DNA of 64,000 nt, taken from positions 80,950 to 144,949 of the forward strand of contig JAJZAH010000002.1 in assembly GCA_021799535.1 (NCBI GenBank), written 5' to 3'. The notes beneath the pieces were generated by a model. The model was not told the origin of the DNA, searched no databases, and saw nothing but the letters and a program-made list of their open reading frames with translations. Shown here piece by piece: positions 4,064 to 63,062 of the stretch (positions within the stretch are counted from its first letter, which is position 1; each line of letters opens with the position of its first letter). The stretch comes from Nanobdellota archaeon (GTDB taxonomy: Archaea; Nanobdellota; Nanobdellia; Pacearchaeales; GW2011-AR1). Position numbers and translations under genes: made by a program.

Positions 4064-4157
4064 ATCAAGGTGATGAAGGGTAAATTATTAAAATTTGCTT
4101 TAATTATTTTTGACAAAAAATCAAAAAATATAAAAATATGGATTGTTATTCAAATAT

Positions 4158-6884: not shown

Positions 6885-7650
6885 GATGATTGTTATTGCC
6901 TCGGGTAAAGGTGGGGTTGGTAAAACGACTACTGCGATAAATCTTGGTGCGGCAATGAGGTCTTTTGGAAAGGATGTGCTTGTTATCGATGCTAATATGT
7001 CAACCCCTAATGTCGGGATCCATCTTAACTCTCCGGAGGTGCCCATAAGTCTGAACCATGTTCTTCAAAGAAAGGCTCAACCTCAAGAGGCAGTTTATTC
7101 CCATGAATCAGGCATAAAGATAATCCCATCTTCGCTTTCAGTTAAGGAGCTGAAAAAGCTGAAATTTGAGAAGCTCAGGGAATTCAGAAACGACTTCAAG
7201 AGCTTGGCTGAGTATGTTATCTTAGACTGCTCGGCTGGTTTGGGGAAAGAGGCCATGAGCGCGATGGAAATGGCTGATGAAGTGATACTTGTTTCAAATC
7301 CAGAGATGCCTGCGATAACTGATGCGTTAAAGACAATAAAGGTCGCTCAGGGACTTAAAAAACCAATAACCGGAGTGATAATGACAAGAGTAAAGAAAAA
7401 TGATTATGAGCTTCCCCCTGAGACGGTGAAAGACATGCTTGAGGTTCCAGTGTTGGGGATGATCCCGGAGGATGAACTTTTCCAAGATTCTCTTAGGAGA
7501 AAGAACCCTCTTGTTCATCTGCATCCTAAGTCAAAACCTGCAAGAGCATACAAAGAGATTGCCGCAAGACTCATCAATATTGAATATGATTCTGATAAAG
7601 ATCGCGAGACTTTAATTGAGAAAATAAGGGGTTTCCTTGGCGTAAGGTAG
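6877..7650 (+). CDS. minD: MinD/ParA-type P-loop ATPase (archaeal MinD-like)
   Basis: Deviant Walker A IVIASGKGGVGKTTTAINLGAAM; ..VLVIDANMSTPN..; DCSAG. Confidence 0.8.
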   Translation: MNRMIVIASGKGGVGKTTTAINLGAAMRSFGKDVLVIDANMSTPNVGIHLNSPEVPISLNHVLQRKAQPQEAVYSHESGIKIIPSSLSVKELKKLKFEKLREFRNDFKSLAEYVILDCSAGLGKEAMSAMEMADEVILVSNPEMPAITDALKTIKVAQGLKKPITGVIMTRVKKNDYELPPETVKDMLEVPVLGMIPEDELFQDSLRRKNPLVHLHPKSKPARAYKEIAARLINIEYDSDKDRETLIEKIRGFLGVR

Positions 7651-9242: not shown

Positions 9243-9635
9243 ATGAACACCCAAAAAGGGTTTTTTTTAACTCCTCAAATCAGTACAATGGAAAGGATAA
9301 AATATGTAATGGTAACGGGTTTCGGTTATAATCCAGATTACAAACTTTATGTTCCGGACAGATTTGTTCTTGGGGATTTCAGAAAAATAAAAAATAATCT
9401 TTCTTTCTCAGGAAAATTCTCATATGTTGATGATAAACACGTTCTTGATAAATATTTTAAAAGTATACGTGATGGGAGTTTGATTCTTTTCAGATGGACC
9501 GAAATCTCTGATCAACTTGTAGATGAGATAACATCTTGTGGTAATTTGTACAATGAATCTAAAAGGACCCTTGCGGACCTTACGCAATTTTCTCTTCCAG
9601 CTTTTCTTAATGATTTTCTCATTAAAAATAAATGA
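9243..9635 (+). CDS. hypothetical protein (130 aa)
   Basis: ORF with CTTATAAA box exactly 29 nt upstream (9214). Its stop codon overlaps the 3' end of tRNA-Ile on the other strand. Confidence 0.5.
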   Translation: MNTQKGFFLTPQISTMERIKYVMVTGFGYNPDYKLYVPDRFVLGDFRKIKNNLSFSGKFSYVDDKHVLDKYFKSIRDGSLILFRWTEISDQLVDEITSCGNLYNESKRTLADLTQFSLPAFLNDFLIKNK

Positions 9636-9769
9636 GGCTACACAGATTTGAACTGTGGACCTCTGCCTATCTAACGATTGTCTATCTTAAGGGAAGATAG
9701 AGCGGTAGGAAACCGCCAGGCGTCCTTCGCTATCAGAGCAGCGCTCTAGCCAGGCTGAGCTATAGCCTC
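9633..9769 (-). tRNA. tRNA-Ile (anticodon GAT) with 62-nt intron at canonical 37/38 (intron 9669-9730)
   Basis: Manual fold: GAGGCTA/TAGCCTC acceptor, D arm GCTC..GAGC, anticodon stem CTGCT/GGCAG, loop CTGATA|A, T arm CACAG-TTCAAAT-CTGTG. BHB: central helix CTGA/TTAG flanked by 3-nt bulges. Confidence 0.85.
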
Positions 9770-14817: not shown

Positions 14818-15612
14818 ATGGGGAAGGTGATAGGAATTCTTAGCTTAAAAGGAGGCGTAGGGAAAACTACAAGTGCTGTTTCGCTTGGCGCTGCTCTTGC
14901 GTCCTTTGGGAAAAAAGTGCTCTTAGTTGATGCCAATTTTTCGGCTCCGAACCTTGGGATACATCTCAACATACTTAACCCAGAGAAGACAATACATCGT
15001 GTATTAACTGATGAAATCAAGATAGAAGATGCAATCCATGAATTTGGGGGGTTTGATATAATCCCCGCGTCGGTTTATCCAAAAAAATCATTTGATCCTC
15101 TGAAACTAAAGGATAAGTTAAAAAAGCTTAGAGACAAATATGACTTTATAATAATTGACTCATCTCCTTCGCTGAATAATGAGACTCTTGCAGCTATGGT
15201 TTCTTCAGATGAACTTTTTGTGGTCTCGACCCCTGATTTTTCGACTCTGACTATGACGCTTAAGGCGATAGCGCTTGCCAAAAAGAGGGGGACTCCAATC
15301 TCAGGTATTATAATAAACAAGGCTTATGGAAAAAATTTTGAACTTAGTCTTGAAAATATAGAAAGGACGAGCGAGGTTCCTGTTTTGGCAGTTGTTCCCC
15401 ATGATGTTAATATCCTTAAATCTCAGGCACATTTCATGCCTTCTACTTACTTCAGGCCTAATTCGGACGCAAGCTTTGAATACAAAAAACTTGCAGCATG
15501 CCTCACTGGTGAAAAATATACCCCTCTTAGATGGAGAGAAATATTCCATAATATTTCCCCTAAAAGACAGGACATAAACCGTGAACTTTTTTATAGCAAG
15601 GTTTTTAGGTGA
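14818..15612 (+). CDS. MinD/ParA-type P-loop ATPase (second paralog)
   Basis: IGILSLKGGVGKTTSAVSLGAALASFGKKVLLVDANFSAPN; DSSPS. TATA-like box 29 nt upstream (14789). Confidence 0.75.
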   Translation: MGKVIGILSLKGGVGKTTSAVSLGAALASFGKKVLLVDANFSAPNLGIHLNILNPEKTIHRVLTDEIKIEDAIHEFGGFDIIPASVYPKKSFDPLKLKDKLKKLRDKYDFIIIDSSPSLNNETLAAMVSSDELFVVSTPDFSTLTMTLKAIALAKKRGTPISGIIINKAYGKNFELSLENIERTSEVPVLAVVPHDVNILKSQAHFMPSTYFRPNSDASFEYKKLAACLTGEKYTPLRWREIFHNISPKRQDINRELFYSKVFR

Positions 15613-16828: not shown

Positions 16829-16901
16829 AGCCCCCTAGTACAGTGGTCAAGTATGTAAGCCTTTGGAGCTTAAGACCCAGGTTCGAATCCTGGGGGGGCT
16901 A
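16829..16901 (+). tRNA. tRNA-Gln (anticodon TTG)
   Basis: Acceptor AGCCCCC/GGGGGCT with the A1-U72 pair typical of archaeal tRNA-Gln, loop CTTTGGA, T arm CCAGG-TTCGAAT-CCTGG. TATA CTTATAAA at 16796-16803. Confidence 0.85.
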
Positions 16902-17873
16902 TTCTTTAAATGGATAATAATTCAATGCTTCGTAGAATTTGTGGTATATTATTGAGTCATACGAGATTATCTCGGGAAAGTTTTTTCTTATCTCTGACAT
17001 GAGATTGTAGAACTCATCAACGTCTTTTATTATGCACCTGAACTCGAGATCACAGAAACCTATTGTCTTTGTGACCGAAATCACGGGATCGAGATTTTTG
17101 AGGAGTCTTGTCAGTTCTTTCTCTTTCTCTTCAGTCAGATTCTCCATCTGTAAAAAGACTCGGTAATGGAGATACCCTAGGATAGGATAGTTTATCATTA
17201 CCCTGTAACCTAAGATTATTTTCTCTTTCTCAAGAATTTTTATCCTATTTTTCACCGCGTTTGGAGTCAATTCTGTCGCTTCAGATATATCAAGAAGGCT
17301 TTTCCTCGCATCTGAAGAAAGGATTTCTAATATTTTCTTGTCTGTCTTGTCAAGTTTCAAGATTTTCGGCTCGCCTTCCATTACGATTTCGTCTTCAGGT
17401 TTTTCTTTAGAGAATAATTTGGGTTTGAAATAATGGAATCTTGTTTCTATCATTATCACTCTCTTTCTCACGTATTTTGCGTAGCTTTTCATTATGTCAC
17501 GATATTTGGCTTCAAATGACAACACGCTTTCTGCCCATATTCCTGTGCAATGGTCGAATTCCCCATTTATCCCGACGTTTACGCCTACACTTTCGTGTTC
17601 TGAAAGATGTTTTATGAATTGTTTGGATTTCTCCTCGGGCATATTTCCGAATTTCAAATAAACAAGATAAATATTATATCCTATTTTTGACGCGTTGATG
17701 TCAGCGTAGAAGCCTTCTATAACTTTCTCTTTTTGGAGTTTCTCGAGGTGATATTTCAAGACCTGCATAGATTTTCCTGCCTTCTTCGAGAGCAGACTAA
17801 GGGGCATTCTTGAATGAAAATCCAAGTTGAATAATATCTTCTTATCAGTCTCATCAAGCGTGATTTCTTCCAC
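16899..17873 (-). CDS. Lrp/AsnC-family regulator with two tandem HTH+RAM modules (paralog 2 of 3)
   Basis: DKKILFNLDFHSRMPLSLLSKKAGKSMQVLKYHLEKLQKEKVIEGF and DKKILEILSSDARKSLLDISEATELTPNAVKNRIKILEKEKIILGY. GTG start 17873 lies exactly 29 nt from TTTATATA (17902-17895). Confidence 0.75.
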   Translation of the reverse strand: MEEITLDETDKKILFNLDFHSRMPLSLLSKKAGKSMQVLKYHLEKLQKEKVIEGFYADINASKIGYNIYLVYLKFGNMPEEKSKQFIKHLSEHESVGVNVGINGEFDHCTGIWAESVLSFEAKYRDIMKSYAKYVRKRVIMIETRFHYFKPKLFSKEKPEDEIVMEGEPKILKLDKTDKKILEILSSDARKSLLDISEATELTPNAVKNRIKILEKEKIILGYRVMINYPILGYLHYRVFLQMENLTEEKEKELTRLLKNLDPVISVTKTIGFCDLEFRCIIKDVDEFYNLMSEIRKNFPEIISYDSIIYHKFYEALNYYPFKE

Positions 17874-19393: not shown

Positions 19394-20044
19394 CTAATAC
19401 TTATATCTTCCTCTTTTTTCAATCGCTTTAAGGCGTTCGAAGACTTTTTTTGCCTCTTCTTTGCCAATTGATTCATAACCTTCTTCGAATGATCCGAAAA
19501 GTTTTTCCCAATTCTCGAAATGCCTTGCTTCAAGAGCCTCTTTCAATAAATGTATATCTACCCCTTTTTGCTCATATTTTCCGTTGAACGAGCCAAGGCC
19601 GAAATCAACGATATAAATTTCTCCATTTTTCAATATCATGTTTGAAGTTGTTAAGTCTCCGTGGATAATCCCTTCCCTGTGGAGCTTTCCGACTTCAATT
19701 CCGACTTTTTTCATAGTTTCTTCCTGTTTCTTTTCTTCATACGAATTGAGTTCATCTGAAAGCTTATCCCCCTCTATGAATGGTATCAATATTGCATTTT
19801 CTTTTTCTGTTTCTTCTGGTTTTGGGGCATTAATCACTTCAGAAGCTTTTTTTAGTATTTTTGTTTCGGCTTTTGTTCTTCTTTTTATTATCTTCTTATC
19901 AAGTTCAGGCAGTCTGTATCCTTTTTTGAGCCTTTCTTTTATGACTTTGTCGTCTTCGAGATAAATTACGGCTTCAGCGCCACGTGATAGAATCTTTTTA
20001 TTCATAAAAAAATAGAGAAAAGAAGCAGTTTTAAGGTTTTTCAT
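19394..20044 (-). CDS. bud32: KEOPS kinase Bud32 (Kae1-associated kinase)
   Basis: SRGAEAVIYLEDDKVIKERLKKGYR...KRRTKAETKILKKA...GIIHGDLTTSNMIL..GEIYIVDFGLG. ATGA overlap with the upstream gene; an alternative start is M14 at 20005. Confidence 0.8.
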   Translation of the reverse strand: MKNLKTASFLYFFMNKKILSRGAEAVIYLEDDKVIKERLKKGYRLPELDKKIIKRRTKAETKILKKASEVINAPKPEETEKENAILIPFIEGDKLSDELNSYEEKKQEETMKKVGIEVGKLHREGIIHGDLTTSNMILKNGEIYIVDFGLGSFNGKYEQKGVDIHLLKEALEARHFENWEKLFGSFEEGYESIGKEEAKKVFERLKAIEKRGRYKY

Positions 20045-23440: not shown

Positions 23441-25972
23441 TCACGGCATCCCGGTCTTTTTACCGTGGTATTTCTTCAGTAGATAAGTTATCTGTTCTCC
23501 CTTCCATCCCGATTTTAAAAGATTCTTTCTTATCTCGCTCTCTTCAACGCCGTTTTTTATCGAGTTGGTTATATAGAAAATTGCATTGTAGAGCTGGTTT
23601 TTGTCAGGGAACAAATACTTTTCATACCTTTTGTTATACCACAGCTTAAGGAGGAAATATGCCCCGACTCCCAACACTATAACTCCCAGGATTCCAAGCA
23701 CGACGATCCATGTGTTGTCTTTTGACTGTGTTATGGCCGGGTTCGAAACCGCCTGTATGTTTTCAGGAGCTATAAAAAAGCTGTAAAAATTTCCAAGATC
23801 CTGTCCTGTTGAAAATTGGACAGTTTTTACAGAAGGGCCTAGCTGCAGGTATGAGTATCCATTTGCTGACTGGATCCCGGAGCTATTGTCGAAATTCATT
23901 CCCTGTGAGACGGGGAAGACCAGATAGTATGATTCGTTTATTGCCTGTTTTGGAGTTATCGTTATTGTATAAAAATTTATGGGGATCTTTGACCCGTCGT
24001 CCATCTGGACAATTATTTTAGTTGATGAGATTTTTGAGTCTACGTTATTGAAGTCCCAGTATGATGCGTAACTTGCGCCGCTTGCTGGATACACCGTCCC
24101 GGTTATTTTCCCAAGAGTATTTAAGTCGATTGTGTTGTTGTCAGATACAAGGGGGATGTCCATCGACGAAGTTTTTATAAGGTTCTTTGGTACTTTAAGA
24201 TCAATCAATTCCCCAAGTATCTTTTCATAATCTGCATTTGAGGATGCCGAGGAATTCATTGATTGTATTGAACTGAAACTTGCTGATATATTGGATATTC
24301 CAAGGATTTGATCTAGCTTATCTTTCTGGAACTGGTTCATTGAGGAAATCTGGGACTCAAAAGATGATAACAGTCCTTTTTTTATTCCCATTTCCTGGCT
24401 TATAAAATTTTTTGCCGGAAGGATTTGGACTGTGAAATCCTCAGATAAACTTATTCCGTTATAATGAGCTGATATCTTGACTGTATAGTTTCCCGTTGAA
24501 TTGTAAGTGTGTGAGATTGAAGGGGAGTAGCTTGTGGCCGTAGATGAATTGTCGCCGAAGTTCCAGCTGTATTGTGCTACATTTATCCCTGATGGAACAG
24601 AGACAAGGAATGTCACGGGGAATCCAGCAGCGTATTCTGTGGGATATATGTTCATGGGAAATTCCTGAATTGATATCTTTTTTGTGAAAAGCTTTGTCCC
24701 GTTAAAGCTTAAGCTGTAATCGTTTGTGCCAAGTATCGAAGGGGACAGTGGGATTTTGAAAAAATCGCCCAACGATAAGATTTGTGGTGTTGAGTTTACA
24801 AGCGAGCCAACTTTTTGGAGATCATATAATGTTGACAAGGATGTCGGAGCGAAACCTGAAATTGAATAGCTGACAAATAAGCTTGATACATTTACATCCT
24901 GGCTTGCAGAGGAAATAATTTCTATCGGGATATAGCATCCGTTTGTGCATCCTTCAGGATAATTTGTGGATATGTAATTTTGTACAACTGAAGAGATTCT
25001 TGTTCCGTCAGGGAGTAGATTGTTTATCCCAAAGTTTCCCGGAGTTGCGAAATAGAATGGTTTCACGCCCAGAGCATAGGTCGCCGTTTCATTTTCCGGA
25101 GGCACTCCCGGAAATCCGCAATTCCCTGTTCGAGACTGATACCCTTCGGTTTTGTAATCTCCGGAGTTCGATCCATCTGTCGCGCAGATGTAATAATTTC
25201 CCTGCTGTACTGAAGTGTTCAAATCGCAAAATGCCTCAGAGCCTGATGTTGAAATGCTTGAATTGAAGATATTGCATGATTTTATTTTTATGCCTGCTGC
25301 ATTAACTAATGTTATTGTGATTCCCGGGCTTGTTCCGGTTCTTTGAAACCAGCCGCCAGCTTCTATATCGGGAGCTTCGCTTAGAGTTATATTCTGGCAA
25401 AGAGGAATATCTTTTGAAAGCACAGCTACTGATGATTGCACGCTTGAGTCATAGCATCCATAATTTGCATTTCCAAGCTGTGTGCTCTTTTTTGTATTTT
25501 TTATTTCATAGCTCTTGTTATCTAATATATCTATTCTTATTTGGTTTAAGGGAGAGTTTCCGGCGTTGCTTGACACGTTGAATGAAACTAAATTTACGCC
25601 GGAAATTTGTCCTTTAAGTATGAATCCGATTGTTTTATTTTTCCCTCCGTTTATGGTAAAATATTTTGAACTTTGGGGGTTTGACCCAGTGTAAGATGAG
25701 GCACAATAGGGGAAAGTGCAATTGTACTTATAGTCGGAACCAGTAAGAAGGTCTTTGAGGGGGACCGAGTTACCGAATGAATCTGTGAAAAGCGCTGTTG
25801 CCGGTTGGTTACTGAATGATGCGTTAATTATAAACCCTGTTATTGAAGACCCTCTTGAATAATTTGTGTTTATTGAATAATTCTTAAAAGAATAGCTTGC
25901 TGAAACTGACGAAATCAACAAAACAAACATGGCTCCCGCGAGAAAATAGTTCAGGCCCTCTTTTTTTTTCAT
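23441..25972 (-). CDS. large surface protein (843 aa): signal peptide, Ser/Asn-rich ectodomain with a PKD domain, C-terminal TM + short cytoplasmic tail
   Basis: N-terminal MKKKEGLNYFLAGAMFVLLISSVSA. PKD-like YSWNFGDNSSTATSYSPSISHTYNSTGNYTVKISA. TM WIVVLGILGVIVLGVGAYFLL. Many N-x-S/T sequons. Confidence 0.7.
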   Translation of the reverse strand: MKKKEGLNYFLAGAMFVLLISSVSASYSFKNYSINTNYSRGSSITGFIINASFSNQPATALFTDSFGNSVPLKDLLTGSDYKYNCTFPYCASSYTGSNPQSSKYFTINGGKNKTIGFILKGQISGVNLVSFNVSSNAGNSPLNQIRIDILDNKSYEIKNTKKSTQLGNANYGCYDSSVQSSVAVLSKDIPLCQNITLSEAPDIEAGGWFQRTGTSPGITITLVNAAGIKIKSCNIFNSSISTSGSEAFCDLNTSVQQGNYYICATDGSNSGDYKTEGYQSRTGNCGFPGVPPENETATYALGVKPFYFATPGNFGINNLLPDGTRISSVVQNYISTNYPEGCTNGCYIPIEIISSASQDVNVSSLFVSYSISGFAPTSLSTLYDLQKVGSLVNSTPQILSLGDFFKIPLSPSILGTNDYSLSFNGTKLFTKKISIQEFPMNIYPTEYAAGFPVTFLVSVPSGINVAQYSWNFGDNSSTATSYSPSISHTYNSTGNYTVKISAHYNGISLSEDFTVQILPAKNFISQEMGIKKGLLSSFESQISSMNQFQKDKLDQILGISNISASFSSIQSMNSSASSNADYEKILGELIDLKVPKNLIKTSSMDIPLVSDNNTIDLNTLGKITGTVYPASGASYASYWDFNNVDSKISSTKIIVQMDDGSKIPINFYTITITPKQAINESYYLVFPVSQGMNFDNSSGIQSANGYSYLQLGPSVKTVQFSTGQDLGNFYSFFIAPENIQAVSNPAITQSKDNTWIVVLGILGVIVLGVGAYFLLKLWYNKRYEKYLFPDKNQLYNAIFYITNSIKNGVEESEIRKNLLKSGWKGEQITYLLKKYHGKKTGMP

Positions 25973-26023: not shown

Positions 26024-26605
26024 TCATCGGCGTCGTTTTGCGCTCCGATTCATGAATGCCACATAGTTTTTGGTCTCATCCGGAGCTTTTTTCATGTTCC
26101 ATCTGCTGGCTTTAAGGTTCCCGTACCCCCAGTTGTAGCCTGCGATTATCAAATCTCTTTTTTCTTTGTTGTTTAATCTTTCCCAGCGAGGATTATTTTC
26201 GGATATGGCTCTTACCAGCCAGTTCAAATATTTTATCCCGGTCTCAAGGTTTTCTTCCGGATTGAACCATTGTTCCTCATAAGAAATCCCCGGATTCACA
26301 TCTTCCCATGCTGTGCGGGTAAGTTGCATTAGCCCTCTGGCCCCTGTCTTTTGGTTCACTGCCATAAAATTGAATGCAGACTCCCGATTTATCATATCTT
26401 CGATAGACTCGGGGGAAAGATATTTATTTTTTAGCTTTTTTGATGAAATGAAATCTCTTATATCTTCCTTAGATGGCGGGACATATATTGTGATATACTC
26501 CTTATATCGAGTCTTATGATCACTAAGATAACTTTCGCCCGTTTTTTTTGTGGTTGCCGGGATCAGGAGTGCTGCAAGGAGTGCTGCGTAAACTGTTTTT
26601 TTCAT
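26024..26605 (-). CDS. secreted lytic murein transglycosylase (SLT domain), bacterial type
   Basis: Signal peptide MKKTVYAALLAALLIPA. SLT motif RESAFNFMAVNQKTGARGLMQLTRTAWEDV, and AGYNWG. Confidence 0.7.
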   Translation of the reverse strand: MKKTVYAALLAALLIPATTKKTGESYLSDHKTRYKEYITIYVPPSKEDIRDFISSKKLKNKYLSPESIEDMINRESAFNFMAVNQKTGARGLMQLTRTAWEDVNPGISYEEQWFNPEENLETGIKYLNWLVRAISENNPRWERLNNKEKRDLIIAGYNWGYGNLKASRWNMKKAPDETKNYVAFMNRSAKRRR

Positions 26606-33223: not shown

Positions 33224-33334
33224 GACTGGTTGGAGCTGTACGTGGTTAAATGTTTGTCGGTTTGTGATAGAGTAATTATGTAAATCGTGTGGTTGAAGAT
33301 AAATCCTTAAATATCCTTTTTGGTCTTTTTTAGT

Positions 33335-34456
33335 ATGGATGGTTGGCAGGTTATAGGAAGACCAGGGGCGATAGGAAGCAGGAAGGACGAAGTTTTATCC
33401 AATTATGACCTCGTCTATGGGAAAGGCGAATGGAAGCTTATTTGGGATATAAATGGAAACTCGTTTGGTCTTGATGGCGCATTGGCCCTTTATGAAGACG
33501 CTTATTTTGATTATTTCAGAAATCATCCGGGTGAACTCAATTGGATTGCGGAGAATTTTTCCGATGTCTATGACAACAACCCTTCGAATATAAACTCAGG
33601 GCTTGATTACTCTATCCAGGAATATGGAGGGAGTCATTTTCAGGATATTGCTATAAGGAGAGTTCTTGTTCGGAATGGGGCATGGTTTAAAGGAAAAGGC
33701 CTGCTTGAGATCAGACTTTCGGATCCCGGGGTCAGATGGGATCCCGGAAAAATCCCATTCCATAAGCCAGATATGGTCCCGAAGCCTGAAGTTGTCGGAT
33801 GGTGGGATTCAGGATCCATTGAAAGCTGGTATCAATCTGCCCGCTATCTTGAAGTTAAGGACTATAACTTTGAGGATGATAGGAGCCTTTATTTCGTGAC
33901 TTCCAATCCGGGCAAGGTGAATTCTGCTCAGAGATCATTTGGTGACTTTGTAAAACTAAAGAAAGTCACCTTGAATATATCTGAAGAGCAGGACACAATT
34001 GAAAAAGTGGCGATCCACAAGGCAAGAGTTGCTTACTCGGTAATATGTAGACCAGTCATATGCGATGATTCAGGTCTTGTAATCCCGTCGCTGGGAGAGT
34101 GGCCCGGTGCCAGGGTCAAAAGGGAAATTGAGAATCTTGGAGAGAGTGGTTTTGCAGATCTCTTCCGTGATGGTCCCAAGGAAGCTTACTTCAAGATGGC
34201 TGTCGCTTATTTTGATGAAAATCTAAGAAAACCTGAGATTTTTATTTCAACTGTAAAGGGGAGGATTTATTATGAAGCAAGAGGTAATCCCGAAAAGCCT
34301 TTTATAAAGAACAAAACTCTTGGGACAAGATTTGTCCCGGATGGCTGTGCTAAGACTCTTGCAGAAATGTCTGATGAGGAATACAAAAGAGATGCGACAA
34401 CGGACAGATGGAGGAATCTGGTAAACTTTCTCAGTAGCAGGGAACAAAAGAAATAA
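33335..34456 (+). CDS. fusion protein: unknown ~185-aa N-terminal domain + Ham1/ITPase (non-canonical purine NTP pyrophosphatase)
   Basis: C-terminal YFVTSNPGKVNSAQ..., EEQDTIEKVAIHKARVAY, CDDSGLVIPSLGEWPGARVKR. Start at ATG 33335 (CTTAAATA at 33306). Confidence 0.7.
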   Translation: MDGWQVIGRPGAIGSRKDEVLSNYDLVYGKGEWKLIWDINGNSFGLDGALALYEDAYFDYFRNHPGELNWIAENFSDVYDNNPSNINSGLDYSIQEYGGSHFQDIAIRRVLVRNGAWFKGKGLLEIRLSDPGVRWDPGKIPFHKPDMVPKPEVVGWWDSGSIESWYQSARYLEVKDYNFEDDRSLYFVTSNPGKVNSAQRSFGDFVKLKKVTLNISEEQDTIEKVAIHKARVAYSVICRPVICDDSGLVIPSLGEWPGARVKREIENLGESGFADLFRDGPKEAYFKMAVAYFDENLRKPEIFISTVKGRIYYEARGNPEKPFIKNKTLGTRFVPDGCAKTLAEMSDEEYKRDATTDRWRNLVNFLSSREQKK

Positions 34457-35231: not shown

Positions 35232-36617
35232 ATGCAACCAGAGGTTAAGGTGAAAAAGCCTGTCCGCTCGAAGTCAGGCGTTACTCCGCTGACTGTAGTT
35301 CTAGCGCCGCGCAGATGTAATCATGGGACATGTATTTACTGCCCGGGCGGAGATTTTGTCCCTCAAAGCTATACTGACAAGAGCCCTGCGGTAATGAGGG
35401 CGCTCGCGCTAAATTTTGATGTGAGAAAACAGGTGTGCTCGCGCCTTGATGCTCTGATAAAGATGGGTCACCCGACTGAGAAGATAGAACTGATAATAAT
35501 AGGCGGGACTTTTTTGCAGTACCCTTCGGATTACCAGTATGATTACATAAAAGGGTGCTTTGATGTTCTTAATGGCGTTGAGTCTGCAACGCTTGAAGAA
35601 GCGCAAAGGATAAACGAGACGGCCGAGCATAGGATTGTTGCGATGTGTATAGAAAACCGTCCTGATAACTGCTCGGAGGACGAGATAAAGCGGATGAGGG
35701 AGTTCGGGGCCACAAGAGTGGAGATTGGGGTCCAGATATTGGATGATGATATTTACAAAAAGATTGCAAGAGGCCACAAAGTGAGAGATGTTATTGAAGC
35801 GTCCCAAAGATTGAAAGATGCCGGCTTTAAGATGGGCTACCATATAATGCCCGGGCTCCCATATTCTGACATAAAAAAAGATATAGAGAAGTTCAAGCTT
35901 GTTTTTGAAGATGAATCTTTCAGGCCTGACCAGCTCAAGATTTATCCCTGTCAGATTGTCGATGATTCCCCTCTTGCAAAAATATACAAAAGGATAAACT
36001 ATAGGATGTATACAGATGAAGAGATTAAAAAGGTCCTTTTTGAAATGATGGAACTAGTTCCGGATTATTGCAGGATAATGAGGGTTATGAGGGAAATCCC
36101 AAAAGAGAAAATGGTCGGTGCCGCAGGCTCGACATCGATAAGGAAAGAGGTCGAGGAAGAATTGAGAAGGAGACATGAGCACGTGAAGGAGATAAGGATG
36201 AGGGAGATAGGATTTAACTCCATAGGTCTCAAGACAGATACTATAATGAAGACGATAGAATACAATTCCTCAGGAGGCAAAGAATTCTTCCTTGAAGTTG
36301 TAAATTCAGATGATGTCCTATTCGGATTATTGAGACTTCGGTTTCCAAAAGAGACTTTCATAGATGAAATTAAAGATTGCGCTCTTGTCCGTGAACTTCA
36401 TGTTTATGGTCAGGCATTGAATCTTGGGGAAAAAGGAAAGGATTCACAACACACTGGCCTTGGAAAACTTCTCATGAGTGAGGCTGAAAAGATCGCCCGC
36501 GATGCAGGATACAAAAAAATTGCAGTAATCTCAGGGGTAGGTGTCCGCGAATATTACAGAAGATTGGGTTACGAAATTGAAGGAACTTATATGGTTAAAG
36601 AGCTAAATCAGGTTTAA
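35232..36617 (+). CDS. elp3: Elp3-type radical SAM/GNAT tRNA uridine(34) modification enzyme
   Basis: Radical SAM cluster CNHGTCIYCPGG; ELP3 core (RVEIGVQ..DD, GYHIMPGLP); C-terminal GNAT (QHTGLGKLLMSEAEKIA). Confidence 0.85.
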   Translation: MQPEVKVKKPVRSKSGVTPLTVVLAPRRCNHGTCIYCPGGDFVPQSYTDKSPAVMRALALNFDVRKQVCSRLDALIKMGHPTEKIELIIIGGTFLQYPSDYQYDYIKGCFDVLNGVESATLEEAQRINETAEHRIVAMCIENRPDNCSEDEIKRMREFGATRVEIGVQILDDDIYKKIARGHKVRDVIEASQRLKDAGFKMGYHIMPGLPYSDIKKDIEKFKLVFEDESFRPDQLKIYPCQIVDDSPLAKIYKRINYRMYTDEEIKKVLFEMMELVPDYCRIMRVMREIPKEKMVGAAGSTSIRKEVEEELRRRHEHVKEIRMREIGFNSIGLKTDTIMKTIEYNSSGGKEFFLEVVNSDDVLFGLLRLRFPKETFIDEIKDCALVRELHVYGQALNLGEKGKDSQHTGLGKLLMSEAEKIARDAGYKKIAVISGVGVREYYRRLGYEIEGTYMVKELNQV

Positions 36618-37363
36618 TTTATCAGATCATCAATAGATCTTACGCCTTTTGTCCTATTCAAAGGATTGATCAGGAGTTTTATCTTCCCTACCTCGAAAAG
36701 CTCCTCTTCAGATTTGTCAGGTCTTAGCTTGGCGAAATTCCTGTATATCTTTACTCTCTCCTTTGTAAGAATCCCAAAGTCAAAATGACCTCCGGTAAAT
36801 CGGTCATTTCTTGCAGCTTCAAGAATGTGTCCGAACTCTCTTCTTAATACTCCTTCGAAATTTCCGCTGGTCAAATCCTGAATAAAATTGTCCTGATCTT
36901 TGTTTAGATCAATGCATATGGAACCTGATCCGCAGGTCTCATGCCTTATTGTTCCGAATGTAATATACGGTATATTTGAAGAGTTCAATATCAAGTCGCC
37001 TTTGCCTGCAAAAAGGTACTGATTTCTTTCTATGGCCTTTCCATCCCGGATTTCCTCATAATGTACCATATGGTCTAAAAGTTCCAACTCTTCTCTGATA
37101 TCTGTTGCAGGTCTTTCCTTGGAAGCTATAAATTCGTCTGCTTTATTTCTTATAACCAAAGCTTGATTTTCAAAAAAGATTTCTTTCCCCGCGTATGCAA
37201 ATATCATTGACTTTTCCTTGTTGGAGAAAACTTTCTTTGCACTGTAAGACACATTTTTTATAAGGTTATTCTCGCCTGTTATCGAGCTCTGTGAATCGCT
37301 CGCGAATAAAACATATTTTTCCCCGTATCTGTTAAGGCCTGTGAGAGCGGTTATCGTTGTCAT
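36614..37363 (-). CDS. HslV/proteasome-beta-like Ntn hydrolase, paralog A (249 aa, no propeptide)
   Basis: MTTITALTG..YVLFASDSQ...SAKKVF...MIFAYAGK...CGSGS...RFTGGHFDFGILTKE. Thr directly after the initiator Met, and D, K, GSGS, xGG positions in proteasome/HslV order. Confidence 0.6.
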   Translation of the reverse strand: MTTITALTGLNRYGEKYVLFASDSQSSITGENNLIKNVSYSAKKVFSNKEKSMIFAYAGKEIFFENQALVIRNKADEFIASKERPATDIREELELLDHMVHYEEIRDGKAIERNQYLFAGKGDLILNSSNIPYITFGTIRHETCGSGSICIDLNKDQDNFIQDLTSGNFEGVLRREFGHILEAARNDRFTGGHFDFGILTKERVKIYRNFAKLRPDKSEEELFEVGKIKLLINPLNRTKGVRSIDDLIN

Positions 37364-37366
37364 TTT

Positions 37367-38116
37367 CTATATAAGAACTAAGTCATCAAGGTTTTCTACA
37401 TTTATCCCGTGCGAAGATAGTTTTTCTATAAGACAATATTTTCCAATTTCAAAAAGTTCGTCGGGCGTATGGCTGTTATACATAGGTGCGAACTCTTCGA
37501 AAATCATTGCACTTTCTCTTGTCAGAAGACCGAAGTTAAAGAATCCGCCCGTCGCTTCGTCAATTGCAGATGCTTGGGATATGAGGTCAAATGAGGCTTT
37601 CAATAAAGAGGTCATTTCTGAATAAATTTTTTCTTCATCAACTTCATCAAACATTTTCAATCTTGGGACTACTAAATTTCTCTCCCTCAACTTCTTTGCC
37701 CCGGTTCCGAGAGCGTACATGACCATGCTGTTATTCTTTTTCCCTTTAGAATACCAGTTTAATTTCAAATCTGTTTTGTTAGCGAAAGTATATCCATTAT
37801 TCCTGTTTCCCTGGTTTGTTATCTTATCGAGTTTTTTCAGCTCTTTTATGGTTTCTTGGGTTGAATTGTGCTCTTTTGAAAGAAATCTTTCGGCTGCCAT
37901 GATTATTTCAGGATGCTTCTCATCAACCGTCTCTTTTTGCAGTACCGCCCCTCCGGCGTATGCCAGCATCAAATTGCCATCGTTATTTGTAAAAATCTTT
38001 TTCGCATTATATCGGATGCTCCTGGATCCTAGATTCCATTCGGAATCACCCGCGAAGATTATATACTCTTTTTTCCTCAATGGGTCATAGCCTTTTATGC
38101 CCATTACAGTTGTCAT
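37367..38116 (-). CDS. HslV/proteasome-beta-like Ntn hydrolase, paralog B (249 aa)
   Basis: MTTVMGIKG..YIIFAGDSE...NAKKIF...LMLAYAGG...LGTGA...ATGGFFNFGLLTRE. ATG 38116 (the track start is TTG one codon upstream) sits 21 nt after TTCTTAAATA. Stop TAG-aaa-ATG leads into paralog A. Confidence 0.6.
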   Translation of the reverse strand: MTTVMGIKGYDPLRKKEYIIFAGDSEWNLGSRSIRYNAKKIFTNNDGNLMLAYAGGAVLQKETVDEKHPEIIMAAERFLSKEHNSTQETIKELKKLDKITNQGNRNNGYTFANKTDLKLNWYSKGKKNNSMVMYALGTGAKKLRERNLVVPRLKMFDEVDEEKIYSEMTSLLKASFDLISQASAIDEATGGFFNFGLLTRESAMIFEEFAPMYNSHTPDELFEIGKYCLIEKLSSHGINVENLDDLVLI

Positions 38117-38169
38117 CAAAATTTTCTGCTATCAGCCTATTTAAGAATTATTGTGCTTTGGAGGGAATA

Positions 38170-39036
38170 TTAAGTTTTAATCTTTCCAAGCTGCCAGTCT
38201 TTAAGGATTTCTCTTGATGTCTGATCTATATTGACAATTCCGCCTTTAGATAGTATTTTCTTCATGTGTCCAACTTTTTCTATAAGCTCATCGGAGTCCT
38301 CAACCTCGACATTATAATATTTTTTTACCTGTTCACTGTATTTCTTGAATATTTCATTTATGACAATTTCCGGCTCTCTCACCTGAGTGTAGCTTTTGCC
38401 TCCGAATATTGTGCTCTCTGATATCTTCCTTCTGTCAGTTGTTGAGTATTGGTCTTCGGGTATCACCCCTGGAGAATCTATGAGGACTATGTCTGAAGTG
38501 AGCTTTATCTTCTGGACATTCTTTGTAAAGCCTGCGATTGGTCCGACTCCAGCGGCCCCCCTCCTCGCAAGAAGGTTCAGAAGTGAGCTTTTTCCTGTGT
38601 TTGGATAGCCTATAGCGCCAACCTTTATTCTGTTATCGTTCCCGTTTATGATTTTGTCTTTTTTTATCTCTCTTTTTTCTGGGTTTTCTACCTTTTTAGC
38701 CACAATGCGTATAAGGTTTCTCAAATCTTTTATCCCGCTCTTGTTGGTGCATGAGATTAAGGCGTAGGGGTAAAGAGTCCCTTTTATTTCATTTATCTCT
38801 TTATCCTTAACAAGATCTGATTTATTTAGGACATATATTATTTTTTTCCCCTGCTTCTCTATTTCTTCTTCTAGCTTCCTGTTTCTTGTCTCTTCAGGAA
38901 ACCGGGCATCCATGACTTCAAGTATTATATCTGAGGTATCAACTATCCTTTTGGCCACTTCTGGGTATTTCACCCTTTGGCGTCTCATGTTTTCAATGTG
39001 GCCAGTCCTACGAGAGGAGAATATATACCTTTTCAT
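38170..39036 (-). CDS. circularly permuted ribosome-biogenesis GTPase (YlqF/RbgA/Nug-like)
   Basis: G4 NKSD precedes G1 GYPNTGKSS and G3 DSPG; N-terminal DIILEVMDARFP. Confidence 0.75.
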   Translation of the reverse strand: MKRYIFSSRRTGHIENMRRQRVKYPEVAKRIVDTSDIILEVMDARFPEETRNRKLEEEIEKQGKKIIYVLNKSDLVKDKEINEIKGTLYPYALISCTNKSGIKDLRNLIRIVAKKVENPEKREIKKDKIINGNDNRIKVGAIGYPNTGKSSLLNLLARRGAAGVGPIAGFTKNVQKIKLTSDIVLIDSPGVIPEDQYSTTDRRKISESTIFGGKSYTQVREPEIVINEIFKKYSEQVKKYYNVEVEDSDELIEKVGHMKKILSKGGIVNIDQTSREILKDWQLGKIKT

Positions 39037-41027: not shown

Positions 41028-41107
41028 TATCCTGGTTACGAGATACGGATGATAATTTTGGACATATAGTTGGCAAGGTTTAAATATAAAAAAGGGTCTT
41101 TTTGGAA

Positions 41108-41686
41108 ATGGTTGGTGAAAAAATCTCCCAGAAAATACAAGAAACACTTATTCAGGTCGGGCTGAGGGTAGCTAAGAGAGGAGAGGGCGCCCTTTTCGTT
41201 GTCGGGAAGACTGAATATAAGCCTCTTGTTGACCAGACTGTACCGCCCTTTAACATCACCGAAAATCCGAAGCTTTTGGAATCTCTTGCATTGATGGATG
41301 GGGCAGTCATAATAAACTTAAATGGCCTTATGGAAGCTTATGGCGTCAGAATTAAATCCGAGAGGATTCTGAAAAACTTTGGTACCCGTCACAGTGCAGC
41401 TCTTAGTGCTGCCAAAGGAGATAACCTTGTTGTCGTTATTTCTGAAGAGGACAAGAAAATAAGGATTTTAAAAAAGGGCAAGATGGTCATGCAGCTTGAT
41501 GCTTTACAAAAAGGCGTTGAAAAAAATGTTCCCCGGGCAGTCAATGTGCTTGAATCTCTTGGTGCAGGGGCTGTTGGCGTCATTGGGACGAGCCTTCTTC
41601 TTCCGGCGGCAGGAGTCGCTTTTCTTCCCGGAATAATCGCTTTTGGATCGGCTTATTATCTTATAAGGCGTCTATTCAAGAAATAG
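41108..41686 (+). CDS. diadenylate cyclase (DAC/DisA_N domain) with C-terminal TM anchor
   Basis: GEGALFVVG, DGAVII, GTRHSAALS motifs; C-terminal LGAGAVGVIGTSLLLPAAGVAFLPGIIAFGSAYYLI. ATG 41108 lies 29 nt after TTTAAATA. Confidence 0.8.
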   Translation: MVGEKISQKIQETLIQVGLRVAKRGEGALFVVGKTEYKPLVDQTVPPFNITENPKLLESLALMDGAVIINLNGLMEAYGVRIKSERILKNFGTRHSAALSAAKGDNLVVVISEEDKKIRILKKGKMVMQLDALQKGVEKNVPRAVNVLESLGAGAVGVIGTSLLLPAAGVAFLPGIIAFGSAYYLIRRLFKK

Positions 41687-55363: not shown

Positions 55364-55803
55364 TTTTTAACTATGCGAAGTTTCTATATAAAGATTTTGA
55401 AAACATAACATAGAAATTCATATTTTGAAAAGTTAAGCTTTCTTTATGGGAAAGGAAGGTGAACTGAGTGAACTTATAAATCTTGAGGAGAGGGTATGAA
55501 ACCTTTTGGGAAGTATTACTTTTGGTCAGGTTAGGGAATTGAATTTTGAGTATTTTTCTTATATCACCAGCTTCCTGTCATGGTCGCCTTGGAGCTTATC
55601 AAAACCAAAGCCAGGATAAGCATAAGACATATTACTAATGCAAATTCTATTATGTGCACGAGCCGCTTGTGGGTCCTTCTTTCCATGCAAATCCGGGTCA
55701 TTTGTTATTAATATATCTATCTTTTTTGCGGCAAATCTATTTTCCGCTACCATACATTTTATAAATAAATCTCTCGTTAATTTTTAATAAAGAAGTGGTA
55801 AAA

Positions 55804-57945
55804 ATGAAGGAAGTTTTATCTGTCTTGGCTTTTTGCGTTTTTACTGCCTTATTTGTGTCTTTTGCATCCGCGGGTGCGGTAAGTTTTGCCAATCAGCCAA
55901 ATTCGGTTTATAACATGGGGGATAATATCAACGCGACTCTGACCATAAATTCCCAAAGTGCCTTCGAAAGTGTTGTTTCAATATACCTTGAATGTCCCGG
56001 CAGCAGGGTAGAGGTGTATAAAGAGTTTCTTTCTTTAAGTTCTCCTGCACAAAAAGAAGTTGTTGTCCCTCTTGTAAAATCCTTGATTGGCTATCAGTCA
56101 GGGATTTGCAGGCTTGAGGCTTATGAAGACAATGTTTCCGCGGCTGTTTCTGGGAATTTCGGGATCTCTAACTCTATAACAGTAGATCTTCTTGACTGGG
56201 GAAGTCCGATGAATCCGGGTCAGGAAATAAATTTTACCGGATCTGCCATAAAACAGGACGGAAGGCCTGCAAATGGGTTTTACAGCGCCAGGATTGACAA
56301 CACGACCCTGAGCGGCAACGTTAAAGACGGAGTTTTTAATCTGGAGCTTGCGCTTCCATCCGATTCAGCAGCAGGGCAGCATGAGCTTGATCTAAATGTT
56401 TCTGAAGAAGATTCCTCGGGCAATATCGTGAACTCCGGAAGCAAAATCTATTTCATAAATGTCAATCATGTCCCTACAAATGTCGAGGTGCTTCTTGACA
56501 ATACAAATGTGACCCCTGGAAAAAGCATAAGTGGGAAGATTATCCTTCATGATCAGACAGGTGAGGACATATCAGGCGGGGATGCTTATGTTGCTGTGAA
56601 AGACTCTTCAGGCGCGATTGTAGGCAAAATCGCAACAAAAACTGGAGATAAATTCAGTTATCCGATCAATTCGACTGAGCCTCCTTCAATTTTCACGGTC
56701 TCGGCTTATGCCGACGGAATAATAAACAGTGCTTACGTAAACGTACTTGAAAACAGGGAAGTGACCTCAGATATAATTAATAACACTCTGCTTCTGACGA
56801 ACACAGGAAATGTCTTTTACAACGATACACTTCTTGTGAGGATAGGGGAAGATAATGTGAGTGTTCCTGTGTCTCTTGGAGTTGGAATGTCGCAAAAATA
56901 TATAATAAGCGCTCCTGACGGAGAGTATAATGTCTCTGTTGGCAGCTCACATAGCACGGTTTTCCTCTCAGGCAATGCAGTAGACCTTCAGAAAGTGGAT
57001 GAAGGGAATTTGAACGTAAACATACTAATATGGGTTTTTCTTATTGTGATCCTTGCTTTGGGTCTTTATTTTATGGTGAAAAGAAATTATAAAAAGAAGT
57101 TCGTGACGAAAAAGAAAATTCTGAAGAATTCCACTGGAGATTTTGTCGTCGTGCGTCATGATTTTCAGAAAGGCAGGCAAGCGGAAGACAAAGTTTCGCA
57201 AGTTCCACCTGCAGACAAAAGCGCCCCCCTTTTCAATCCTGGGAGGAAGGTCGAGATATCACTTTCAATATCCGGGACCAAACAGAATTCTTCAGTTGGA
57301 TGTATCTCATTCAGGAATTATCCCGAGATAAGTTCGGGGGAGGGCAATGTGCGTGAGACTCTGAGCAAAGTGAAAGAGGCCGTTGAGGACTCCAAAGGTT
57401 TTGTCTATCAAAACGGAAGTTACCTGTTTTTTATCTTTGCACCTTCATTCACAAGGACTTTCAAGAACCAGAAGGAGGCTGTGGCTGTGGGCAAGAAGAT
57501 AAAGAGGGTGCTTGATGACCATAATAAAAAATTCAGGAAAAAAATAGAGTACGGACTTTCCCTAAATTATGGGCCTGTTATAACAAAACTCGAGCATAAT
57601 GTGATAAAATTCATGAGCCTTGGCACCATAATGATTTCGGCAAAGAAGATAGCTAATAGCTCAGACGGAAGCATTCTCATATCCGAGAGATTCAAAGAAA
57701 ATCTTGAGGATGGTGTCAAGGGTTCTCCTATGGATCTTGGAGGCATGAAAGCTTACAAGCTTGATAATCTTGTTGACAAAAACAGTCATTCTACCTTTTT
57801 ATCGGGCTTCCTTGCGCGTCAGGAGAAAGAGAGGCAGAAATCGGCTGAAGAGAAAAAACCTAAAACTGCTGCGCTTTCCTCTGAAGACACCTCTGTAATA
57901 GATGGCAGCTCAGAAGGAAGTGAGGATACGGAAGGGATTCTCTAG
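55804..57945 (+). CDS. single-pass receptor-like protein: signal peptide, ~390-aa ectodomain, TM, cytoplasmic domain resembling a degenerate class III nucleotidyl cyclase fold
   Basis: MKEVLSVLAFCVFTALFVSFASA; TM ILIWVFLIVILALGLYFMV. The cytoplasmic ..GSYLFFIFAP...EAVAVGKKIKRVL...IEYGLSLNYGPVITK....FMSLGTIMISAKKIANSSDGSILISERF follows the GD..F / A...A..I / IGIH.G.V / G..VN.A.R....A..G.ILIS order by eye. Confidence 0.5.
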   Translation: MKEVLSVLAFCVFTALFVSFASAGAVSFANQPNSVYNMGDNINATLTINSQSAFESVVSIYLECPGSRVEVYKEFLSLSSPAQKEVVVPLVKSLIGYQSGICRLEAYEDNVSAAVSGNFGISNSITVDLLDWGSPMNPGQEINFTGSAIKQDGRPANGFYSARIDNTTLSGNVKDGVFNLELALPSDSAAGQHELDLNVSEEDSSGNIVNSGSKIYFINVNHVPTNVEVLLDNTNVTPGKSISGKIILHDQTGEDISGGDAYVAVKDSSGAIVGKIATKTGDKFSYPINSTEPPSIFTVSAYADGIINSAYVNVLENREVTSDIINNTLLLTNTGNVFYNDTLLVRIGEDNVSVPVSLGVGMSQKYIISAPDGEYNVSVGSSHSTVFLSGNAVDLQKVDEGNLNVNILIWVFLIVILALGLYFMVKRNYKKKFVTKKKILKNSTGDFVVVRHDFQKGRQAEDKVSQVPPADKSAPLFNPGRKVEISLSISGTKQNSSVGCISFRNYPEISSGEGNVRETLSKVKEAVEDSKGFVYQNGSYLFFIFAPSFTRTFKNQKEAVAVGKKIKRVLDDHNKKFRKKIEYGLSLNYGPVITKLEHNVIKFMSLGTIMISAKKIANSSDGSILISERFKENLEDGVKGSPMDLGGMKAYKLDNLVDKNSHSTFLSGFLARQEKERQKSAEEKKPKTAALSSEDTSVIDGSSEGSEDTEGIL

Positions 57946-62093: not shown

Positions 62094-63062
62094 ATGGAAA
62101 AACTTGATCTCAAGGATTACAAAATACTCTATGAGTTGGATCTCAACAGTCGACAGTCTTTCAAGGAAATCGGGAATAAAGTCGGGCTCAGCAAAGACTC
62201 AATAATATATAGAATAAATCAGCTTAAGGAAAAGGGAGTGATAAAGGGGTTTCATACCGTTTTTGACGTCGGAAAACTTGGATTTACATCATTTAGGGTC
62301 TATCTCAAACTTGAAAAAACCAATCAGGAAAAGGAAGAGGAAATGATAAATTTTCTTGTGAATAAAAAGATTGTCACATGGGTGGTTTCAATTTCAGGGG
62401 AATATGATTTGGGTTTTTGGATTCTCTCGGAAAAGCTTGATGAGATGAATAGATTATGGAAAGAATTGTTTCATAGATACAGGGATTTCATAGAGAAAAG
62501 CAATCTCGCGATATTTACTAAGATTTCATATTTCTCTAGGAATTACCTTTCAAAAAATAGCACCAAGAAAAAAGAGTACATCTTTGTGACTGAGCCAAAT
62601 AAAGTCAAACTTGACAAAAAAGATTTAGGAATTATTAATTTGTTATCAGGAAATTCAAGAGTTCCGATTCTGGAAATTTCCCAAAAGTTGAAGATGACCC
62701 CAAAAACTGCTGCTTCTAGAATAAATCAACTTGAGAAGGATGGGGTAATTGTGGGTTACCGCACAATGTTTGATCTTGAAAGGTTAGGCTATGAATATTT
62801 TAAGGTCCATTTCAATTTGCACAATCTCACAGGTCAGAAAGGGAAGCAGTTTATGGGATTTCTCTTTTCTCATCCGAATGTTATCTACAACAATGAAGTT
62901 ATTGGTGGTGATGATGTAGAGATTGAGATACAGACTGAATCTCTTGAGAGCCTCAGAAAAATTCTCAATGAAATAAAAAATAGGTTCTCAGACATCATAA
63001 AAAATTATAAATATCTAAGTTTCTATAAGGAGCACAAATACATCTTCTTCCCTAAGTCTTGA
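62094..63062 (+). CDS. Lrp/AsnC-family regulator with two tandem HTH+RAM modules (paralog 3 of 3)
   Basis: DYKILYELDLNSRQSFKEIGNKVGLSKDSIIYRINQLKEKGVIKGF and DLGIINLLSGNSRVPILEISQKLKMTPKTAASRINQLEKDGVIVGY. Confidence 0.75.
   Translation: MEKLDLKDYKILYELDLNSRQSFKEIGNKVGLSKDSIIYRINQLKEKGVIKGFHTVFDVGKLGFTSFRVYLKLEKTNQEKEEEMINFLVNKKIVTWVVSISGEYDLGFWILSEKLDEMNRLWKELFHRYRDFIEKSNLAIFTKISYFSRNYLSKNSTKKKEYIFVTEPNKVKLDKKDLGIINLLSGNSRVPILEISQKLKMTPKTAASRINQLEKDGVIVGYRTMFDLERLGYEYFKVHFNLHNLTGQKGKQFMGFLFSHPNVIYNNEVIGGDDVEIEIQTESLESLRKILNEIKNRFSDIIKNYKYLSFYKEHKYIFFPKS

Follow-up and report, generated by a model that had tools for sequence, protein, structure and literature searches.

A tandem gene pair

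Two adjacent genes on the minus strand of a 64,000-nucleotide stretch of archaeal DNA (Nanobdellota archaeon, GCA_021799535.1, contig JAJZAH010000002.1, positions 80,950 to 144,949; hereafter the window, meaning this whole stretch) encode paralogs that an initial annotation had described as N-terminal nucleophile (Ntn) hydrolases resembling HslV and the proteasome beta subunit. The upstream gene, g1 (38116..37367), encodes 249 aa from MTTVMGIKG to the tail NLDDLVLI and ends with a TAG stop codon at 37369-37367. The downstream gene, g2 (37363..36614), also encodes 249 aa, from MTTITALTG to the tail SIDDLIN. Read from the open reading frame (ORF) listing and from the raw sequence, these bounds are exactly those first reported. 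At the junction (37364..37369, minus strand), the g1 stop codon is followed by a single AAA codon and then by the g2 ATG. The two proteins are 28% identical over their full length, and their likeness is not due to chance, because the full-length BLASTP match has an E value of 7e-26.

Neither gene encodes a propeptide. In-frame stop codons lie directly upstream of both ATGs and therefore leave no room for one, as had been suggested from the M-T-T starts. In g1, a TAG lies in frame four codons 5' of the ATG (38131-38129), and the only alternative start is a TTG one codon before the ATG. In g2, the sole codon between the g1 stop and the ATG is AAA. From the TAG-AAA-ATG spacing we infer that the pair is co-transcribed and translationally coupled. 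Upstream of g1, a TATA-box-like element, TTCTTAAATA (38138..38147, minus strand), lies about 26 nt 5' of the ATG, within the 53-nt spacer that follows the stop codon of the preceding GTPase gene, and it is kept at the orthologous locus L001, the form common to both being AATT[C/T]TTAAATA. We take this element to be a promoter by reference to the archaeal TATA consensus. Considering both its conservation and the consensus, this putative archaeal promoter is probably the pair's own and probably gives a leaderless or near-leaderless mRNA. At the other end of the pair, the stop codons of g2 and of the convergent Elp3-like gene on the plus strand share the four nucleotides TTAA (36614-36617), so that no intergenic space for a terminator exists.

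All the landmark motifs quoted in the initial annotation are present in the pair: FASDSQ/FAGDSE, AKKVF/AKKIF, FAYAG/LAYAG, TGGHFDFGILT/TGGFFNFGLLT and ELFEVGK/ELFEIGK, together with a glycine-rich motif that reads GTGA in g1 and GSGS in g2.

The family profile identifies a proteasome beta fold

When g1 and g2 were searched singly against Pfam, their best matches were to unrelated families (E > 0.002), both proteins stayed under the gathering threshold of the proteasome family PF00227, and PF00227 did not appear even at E<=10. Neither protein matched TIGR03634, the NCBIfam equivalog of archaeal PsmB. For g1, the HslV model NF003964 of NCBIfam gave an N-terminal match of 13.1 bits (E 0.057), against a cut-off of 137 bits. 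A sequence search of the PDB with g1 returned HslV chains at E values of 0.6-1.2, and the same search with g2 returned nothing. Both proteins thus lie below the curated thresholds, in keeping with the view that they are neither ordinary psmB nor ordinary HslV products.

Relatives are few. Apart from g1 and g2 themselves, a word-indexed search of 5.8 billion proteins recovered just one ortholog pair, even with a four-sequence profile. Among 1.84 billion representatives, an exhaustive HMMER search with a four-sequence profile as query returned 46 proteins at E<=1e-3. Nearly all of these 46 relatives match from residue 1 and start with M-T-T, and a few start with M-S-S or M-T-G. The results below are based on a 44-sequence family alignment (A2), used also as a profile and as a hidden Markov model (HMM); the HMM scores g1 at E 4e-61.

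Profile searches had been proposed as a check of the proteasome assignment; they fail for the single proteins and succeed for the family. Searched against the PDB, the A2 profile matched 20S beta subunits at E values from 2.7e-11 to 2e-6, and all 60 of the 60 matches listed were beta subunits. Individual members also reach the known models: 26 of the 44 match PF00227 at E<1 (best E 1e-9), and the member P0021 bears a precomputed PF00227 annotation. Among the NCBIfam models, TIGR03634 (archaeal beta) is matched by 25 of the 44 members, with a best E value of 5.7e-10, HslV by two, and two alpha-subunit models by one each. Profile-profile alignment with hhalign placed A2 on the Thermoplasma acidophilum beta subunit over 180 columns (probability 96.5%, E 7e-10; the beta sequence used is 100% identical to PDB 3c91_H) and on the A. 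fulgidus beta subunit over 173 columns (E 5e-6), whereas the PDB version of E. coli HslV gave only a 43-column N-terminal match (E 5e-5). As judged from these comparisons, the family is nearer to archaeal beta subunits than to HslV.

Structure prediction followed by Foldseek, the second proposed check, gave the same answer for g2. The AlphaFold2 model built from the A2 alignment has a mean predicted local distance difference test score (pLDDT) of 92.8 and a predicted template modelling score (pTM) of 0.90. A confident model needed the 44 sequences; with a four-sequence alignment the pLDDT was 48.5 and the model unusable. The confident model is an alpha-beta-beta-alpha sandwich with helices H1 (69-79), H2 (86-106), H3 (157-166) and H4 (169-186), followed by C-terminal helices at 219-232, 234-238 and 244-248 (14, 5 and 5 residues). 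Its top 50 Foldseek matches in the PDB are all 20S proteasome chains, nearly all at beta-subunit positions, with a best E value of 3.5e-9 and template modelling scores of 0.55-0.67. The family profile, the members that match PF00227 and TIGR03634, the hhalign alignments and the model with its structural matches together establish that g1 and g2 are Ntn hydrolases of the proteasome beta fold, as first proposed.

Conservation of the active site

Residue numbers used here are those of family columns mapped onto the T. acidophilum beta subunit. In the A2 alignment itself, columns D23, K44, G59, G145, G147 and G192 are invariant, and T2, Y17, D187, T190 and G191 are nearly so. At position 1, the family has threonine, with serine in two members; counting the outgroups, 49 of the 50 aligned rows have threonine or serine here, and the exception (P0026) is truncated at its N-terminus. 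Position 17 (Asp/Glu in this enzyme class) is an invariant aspartate, and K33 and the oxyanion glycine G47 are likewise invariant. G128 and G130 are invariant or nearly so and flank position 129, which is mostly serine and is threonine in eight family proteins. Aspartate 166 is present in all but five members, position 169 is threonine in all but one (which has serine), and G170 is kept in all but one.

Both window proteins keep this set. In g1 we find T1, D17, K33, G47, G128, T129, G130, D166, T169 and G170; in g2 the full catalytic set is present, with serine at 129 and with D166, T169 and G170. The Ser129 site is thus G-T-G in g1 and G-S-G in g2. The eight carriers of Thr129 include g1, its ortholog and a tandem-array gene (P0018), and none is known as a single-copy gene. 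The evidence on fold and residues demonstrates that the family descends from a proteasome beta subunit and retains the Ntn sandwich (alpha-beta-beta-alpha) together with the whole catalytic set.

The C-terminal extension

The hhalign alignment with the T. acidophilum beta subunit stops at family column 203, which corresponds to residue 182 of the 203 residues of that subunit. About 46 residues follow the core in the window proteins versus about 21 in canonical beta, a net gain of about 25. The addition of some 60 residues described at first is therefore too long. The extension also varies within the family: some members of about 200 aa are without it, and others carry large insertions. Two groups of members differ at the very end of the chain. 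Clade I, which includes the window proteins, ends in S-[LI]-[DE]-[DEK]-[IL]-[ILV]-[LF]-x, and clade II in H-P-[YWK]-x-R-[DE]-x; in the A2 alignment the two motifs are mutually exclusive. The conservation of the extreme C-terminus suggests a docking function.

A rare archaeal family with a lineage-specific duplication

An orthologous pair with the same synteny occurs in a related genome, GCA_027343665.1, which answers a check requested in the first description. The ortholog of g1 (P0004) is 61% identical to it and that of g2 (P0002) 40%, and g2 diverges faster overall, with 40-46% identity to its orthologs versus 61-64% for g1. Identical copies were found on 14 contigs. The two are real, conserved genes.

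We built a neighbour-joining tree (200 bootstrap replicates) with two archaeal beta sequences and E. coli HslV as outgroups. The family splits from the three outgroups together with 86% bootstrap support. Within it, g1 groups with P0004 (100%), g2 with P0002 (96.5%), and all four with each other (95%). Because these four proteins form a clade of their own, the duplication is specific to the common ancestor of the two organisms and is independent of the short-plus-long arrays found elsewhere (see below). The pair is best explained as a tandem duplication specific to its lineage, within a rare archaeal family.

A motif-pattern locus search (A3) found two loci among 185,579 species genomes and three in JGI metagenomes; a locus pattern based on A2 was too divergent for this kind of search. 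The majority of members stem from Logan, ENA or JGI assemblies, and for the ten clusters looked up, GenBank accessions were available for two. The named members are Woesearchaeota-like archaea, with the organism labels 'Candidatus Woesearchaeota archaeon' (MBT7237834.1) and unclassified 'archaeon' (NCN86261.1). A member encoded on a 938-kb contig from JGI (Ga0453684_0000016) bears the name '20S proteasome alpha/beta subunit'. A gene adjoining P0021 was considered as a paralog and rejected, as it is not a family member.

Genomic context

Upstream of g1, on the same strand, lies a gene for a 288-aa circularly permuted MMR_HSR1 GTPase of the YlqF/RsgA type (38170..39036, minus strand; Pfam), and downstream of g2, in convergent orientation, a gene for an Elp3-like radical-SAM/GNAT protein (35232..36617, plus strand; Pfam) that marks a syntenic boundary. 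In the same order, GTPase and family gene(s) are found again at four other loci (L001, L017, L018 and that of P0029), as is the Elp3 arrangement. More widely, the clade I neighbourhood consists of a divergent GT1 glycosyltransferase, the permuted MMR_HSR1 GTPase, the family gene(s), the convergent Elp3 and a SAM (S-adenosylmethionine) methyltransferase. The spacer between the GTPase gene and the first family gene is about 50-63 nt, on the same strand, among members sharing no more than about 20-25% identity. In clade II the genes are single-copy and lie between SRP54/Ser-hydrolase and deoxyhypusine synthase/enolase genes, and further members occur in other, differing contexts.

The number of family genes at the GTPase/Elp3 locus differs between genomes. 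One gene is present at the P0029 locus, and two tandem genes are present in the window and at L001. Two genes are also found at L018 (2198-3606), namely a short gene of 202 aa with G-K-G at the Ser129 site and a gene of 265 aa (P0009). Three are found at L017 (GCA_009992215.1, JAACWB010000004.1, 10001-12105): 200 aa with G-S-G, a middle gene of 247 aa with G-N-G, and 251 aa with G-T-G. At L017 and L018, the short upstream gene type is without the C-terminal extension. The G-K-G and G-N-G motifs suggest that some of these array partners may be degenerating.

No AAA+ unfoldase or alpha subunit is encoded in the 64-kb window, which bears out the statement that none lies next to the pair. Across the window and about 90 kb of related loci, no AAA+ gene, alpha subunit or second canonical beta subunit lies beside a family gene. 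The A2 HMM, run on every six-frame ORF of 60 aa or more in the window, found neither a third copy nor a canonical beta subunit. A weak A2 match at 19394-20044 was considered as a beta-like gene and rejected, since it is a RIO kinase.

A phage or defence origin was likewise considered and rejected: the window proteins matched no PHROG or PADLOC entry, and viral structural matches were weaker than cellular ones. The pair sits in housekeeping, vertically inherited synteny and not in a mobile or defence element.

Comparison with known proteasome homologs

Archaeal PsmB (TIGR03634, PF00227, MEROPS T1) gives the best profile, hhalign and structural matches and has the same fold. Both share Thr1, Asp/Glu17, Lys33, Gly47, the G-S-G motif, Asp166 and Ser/Thr169-Gly170, and the family N-terminus TT[IV]xGI is similar to TTTVGI, the start of the mature canonical subunit. 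There are nevertheless several differences. The canonical propeptide is cut autocatalytically at Gly(-1)/Thr1, which is impossible in g1 and g2. The window proteins score below curated thresholds, fall in a clade of their own (86% bootstrap) and have no alpha partner nearby. Within the fold, the S1-S2 hairpin of the family has about 6-7 additional residues, with a conserved [YF]-D-P...Y motif, the G-x-x-A-D-x-Q segment conserved after Gly47 is absent, and the C-terminus is extended by the net 25 or so residues described above.

HslV resembles the pair in its M-T-T start, with Thr1 exposed by removal of the methionine, and in a weak N-terminal similarity to the family. In contrast to g1 and g2, it is bacterial, is paired with hslU, measures about 175 aa and has none of the C-terminal S12/H5 elements; a full-length alignment of the family profile is obtained with beta subunits but not with HslV, and the window holds no AAA+ gene. 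Like the window pair, connectase (DUF2121; the MJ0548 family) is archaeal and propeptide-less, carries Thr1 and a C-terminal addition and is not paired with an unfoldase. It is without H1/H2 and bears a lid of two helices between S3 and S4 (PMC8665760), whereas the g2 model has H1/H2 and no lid. Neither g1 nor g2 matches Pfam DUF2121, and their host is not a methanogen.

The closest parallels in general character are the 22 further proteasome-like families catalogued by Fuchs, Alva and Lupas (2021; PMC8665760), all propeptide-less and none with a conserved AAA+ partner. Many of them have divergent C-termini, and three (WPH, PHI and ACC) occur in diverse archaea. Our family shares with them a distant beta-like sequence with the active-site residues kept, the absence of a propeptide and of an AAA+ partner, divergent C-termini, few representatives, a narrow distribution and an occurrence in 'other Archaea'. 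According to the same paper, PHI is marked by a long helical insertion behind H1/H2, and WPH and ACC by a coiled-coil H5 like that of Anbu. In the g2 model, H2 is not followed by a long insertion and the C-terminus does not form one long helix, a comparison made with the published descriptions only.

The initial annotation had raised the possibility of an undescribed lineage alongside Anbu, BPH and connectase. With 22 comparable families already in print, that claim was overstated, and the reference set behind it (psmB, HslV, Anbu, BPH and connectase) was out of date. We therefore regard the family as probably a new subfamily and not a new kind; by published description, it may differ from WPH, PHI and ACC. 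A literature search for a described DPANN proteasome homolog found none, and a 2026 review in the Journal of Biological Chemistry that cites Fuchs et al. adds nothing on archaeal homologs. Judging from the accession series, the metagenome-assembled genomes that carry the window pair (GCA_027 series) appear to postdate the 2021 survey. With few members in GenBank and these later assemblies, the family may largely have escaped that survey.

A candidate self-compartmentalising threonine peptidase

We consider it somewhat better than an even bet that this tandem duplicate of a rare, propeptide-less family co-assembles into a self-compartmentalising threonine peptidase. In such a system, g1 and g2 would be co-transcribed from their own promoter and translationally coupled, and the Thr1 amine would be freed by methionine aminopeptidase, as in E. 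coli HslV, and not by autolysis. By analogy with known proteasome homologs, the two proteins would most likely co-assemble into a hetero-oligomeric and probably ring-shaped peptidase, in which both subunit types look catalytically competent. The idea of a hetero-oligomer is supported by the presence of one, two or three tandem family genes at the same GTPase/Elp3 locus in different genomes and by the independent duplication of the window pair. The enzyme would probably need no dedicated unfoldase encoded next to it, and would act on peptides or unfolded proteins, or would use a housekeeping AAA+ protein encoded elsewhere. The variable C-terminal extension ends in a conserved tail, S-[IL]-D-[DE]-[IL]-[ILV]-x, of acidic-hydrophobic character, and may serve for contacts between subunits or with a partner.

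Several points weigh against this proposal. Taken singly, g1 and g2 match no proteasome model significantly, so that the proteasome assignment rests on the family profile and on the model made from its alignment. Ring formation and hetero-assembly are argued purely by analogy. The conserved gene order may reflect the general synteny of a slowly rearranging lineage, with no functional link to the GTPase. Finally, yeast beta subunits deprived of their propeptides can reportedly be inactivated by N-alpha-acetylation of Thr1, a result attributed to Arendt and Hochstrasser in 1999, so that a subunit made without a propeptide need not be active.

The alternative that survives best, which we judge unlikely but worth taking seriously, is that g1 and g2 are simply the organism's own fast-evolving 20S beta subunits, a beta1/beta2 pair, such as several archaea have, that assembles between alpha rings encoded elsewhere, is served by PAN or Cdc48 and lost its propeptides secondarily. 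By profile and by structure, the nearest relatives are archaeal and eukaryotic beta subunits and not HslV; some clade II members pass PF00227, and the JGI name given above calls one of these a 20S proteasome alpha/beta subunit. The genomic context is a housekeeping one, and the 64 kb of the window and about 90 kb of related loci hold no other beta-like gene. Against this, a 2026 preprint lists proteasome subunits among the universal single-copy core genes of Nanobdellota. A universal single-copy gene cannot be this rare family, with 46 representatives among 1.84 billion at E<=1e-3 and two loci in 185,579 species genomes (by one motif pattern). The family also stands apart from the two beta and E. 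coli HslV outgroups in the tree, the window proteins score nothing against TIGR03634, and with some members of about 200 aa and others with large insertions, a fit to a fixed alpha ring is not obvious. Given the rarity of the family and the universal single-copy proteasome genes of the preprint, we favour an accessory homolog.

That the two proteins are instead specific Ntn enzymes, acting as monomers or small oligomers in the manner of a connectase-like transpeptidase/ligase or a dedicated processing peptidase, seems to us improbable. The lack of a propeptide and of a neighbouring unfoldase, the C-terminal extension and the narrow taxonomic range would all suit such an enzyme and are general traits of connectase and of many of the new homologs (PMC8665760). 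Its substrate might be tied to the adjacent ribosome-biogenesis GTPase, given that the order of GTPase and family gene and the short spacer between them are kept among such divergent members. However, the whole neighbourhood is syntenic, from the GT1 glycosyltransferase through the GTPase and Elp3 to the methyltransferase, so that the link to the GTPase may be plain gene order, and clade II and other members lie in unrelated contexts. The g2 model, moreover, contains both helix pairs, H1/H2 and H3/H4, which are the ring-contact elements and of which H1/H2 is missing in connectase; it has no connectase-like two-helix insertion, and DUF2121 is not matched.

The active/inactive hetero-oligomer that had been proposed from the difference at the GSGS motif, with one or both proteins as catalytically dead scaffolds, is not supported: G-T-G-A in g1 where g2 has G-S-G-S, the faster evolution of g2 and the loss of the Ser129 hydroxyl in tandem partners elsewhere (G-K-G in the first gene of L018, G-N-G in the second of L017) point that way, but both window proteins keep T1, D17, K33, G47, D166, T169 and G170, and the Thr129 of g1 retains the hydroxyl and belongs to a set of eight family proteins with threonine there, g1 included (none known as single-copy), so we hold this explanation to be very improbable.

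A bolder extension of the co-assembling peptidase that we favour strikes us as doubtful. It would make the family an undescribed, DPANN-restricted protease in need of neither alpha rings nor a dedicated unfoldase, in which tandem duplication at a single fixed locus has formed two- and three-subunit hetero-oligomers repeatedly and independently, as a small-scale prokaryotic parallel to the diversification of the eukaryotic beta subunits. The conserved place just downstream of a permuted ribosome-assembly GTPase might then point to a role in ribosome or nascent-chain quality control.

Other features of the window

The window is archaeal and DPANN-like in its content; it has a GC content of 38.8% and encodes, among others, ribosomal protein L15e and an archaeal editing domain of threonyl-tRNA synthetase. 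An Rfam tRNA match of 137 nt and 51 bits at 9633-9769 (minus strand) is absent from the ARAGORN output and is probably an intron-containing archaeal tRNA.

Three paralogs of about 322 aa (4143-5111, plus strand; 16899-17873, minus strand; 62094-63062, plus strand) each contain two winged-helix AsnC/Lrp-type helix-turn-helix (HTH) domains in tandem. Two paralogous ParA/MinD-type P-loop ATPases lie less than 8 kb apart on the plus strand (6877-7650 and 14818-15612). An ORF of 378 aa (33320-34456, plus strand; its TTG start is uncertain) has a Ham1/ITPase domain at residues 190-356, and its first 190 or so residues have no match in Pfam.

An SLT lytic transglycosylase (26024-26605, minus strand) and a protein with a DisA-type diadenylate cyclase domain (41102-41686, plus strand) are encoded in the window and also near L001 and L017; their presence in an archaeal genome fits an episymbiotic DPANN lifestyle. 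Two large ORFs encode an 843-aa protein with a PKD domain (23441-25972, minus strand) and a 716-aa protein with a weak MG2 or alpha-2-macroglobulin-like match (55795-57945, plus strand). Both are possible surface or host-interaction proteins.

Implications

Because 22 comparable families were catalogued in 2021, the gain from adding one more is incremental. The immediate use is in annotation, since the 'hypothetical proteins' of this family can now be annotated as Thr-Ntn peptidase homologs. The proteasome family is the textbook case for the evolution of self-compartmentalising proteases and of hetero-oligomeric rings. A compact archaeal branch with a full active site, no propeptide and one to three tandem paralogs at one locus is a simple natural system in which to study the assembly and specialisation of beta-type subunits in the absence of alpha rings, and it would reveal how proteolysis works in ultra-small, host-dependent archaea.

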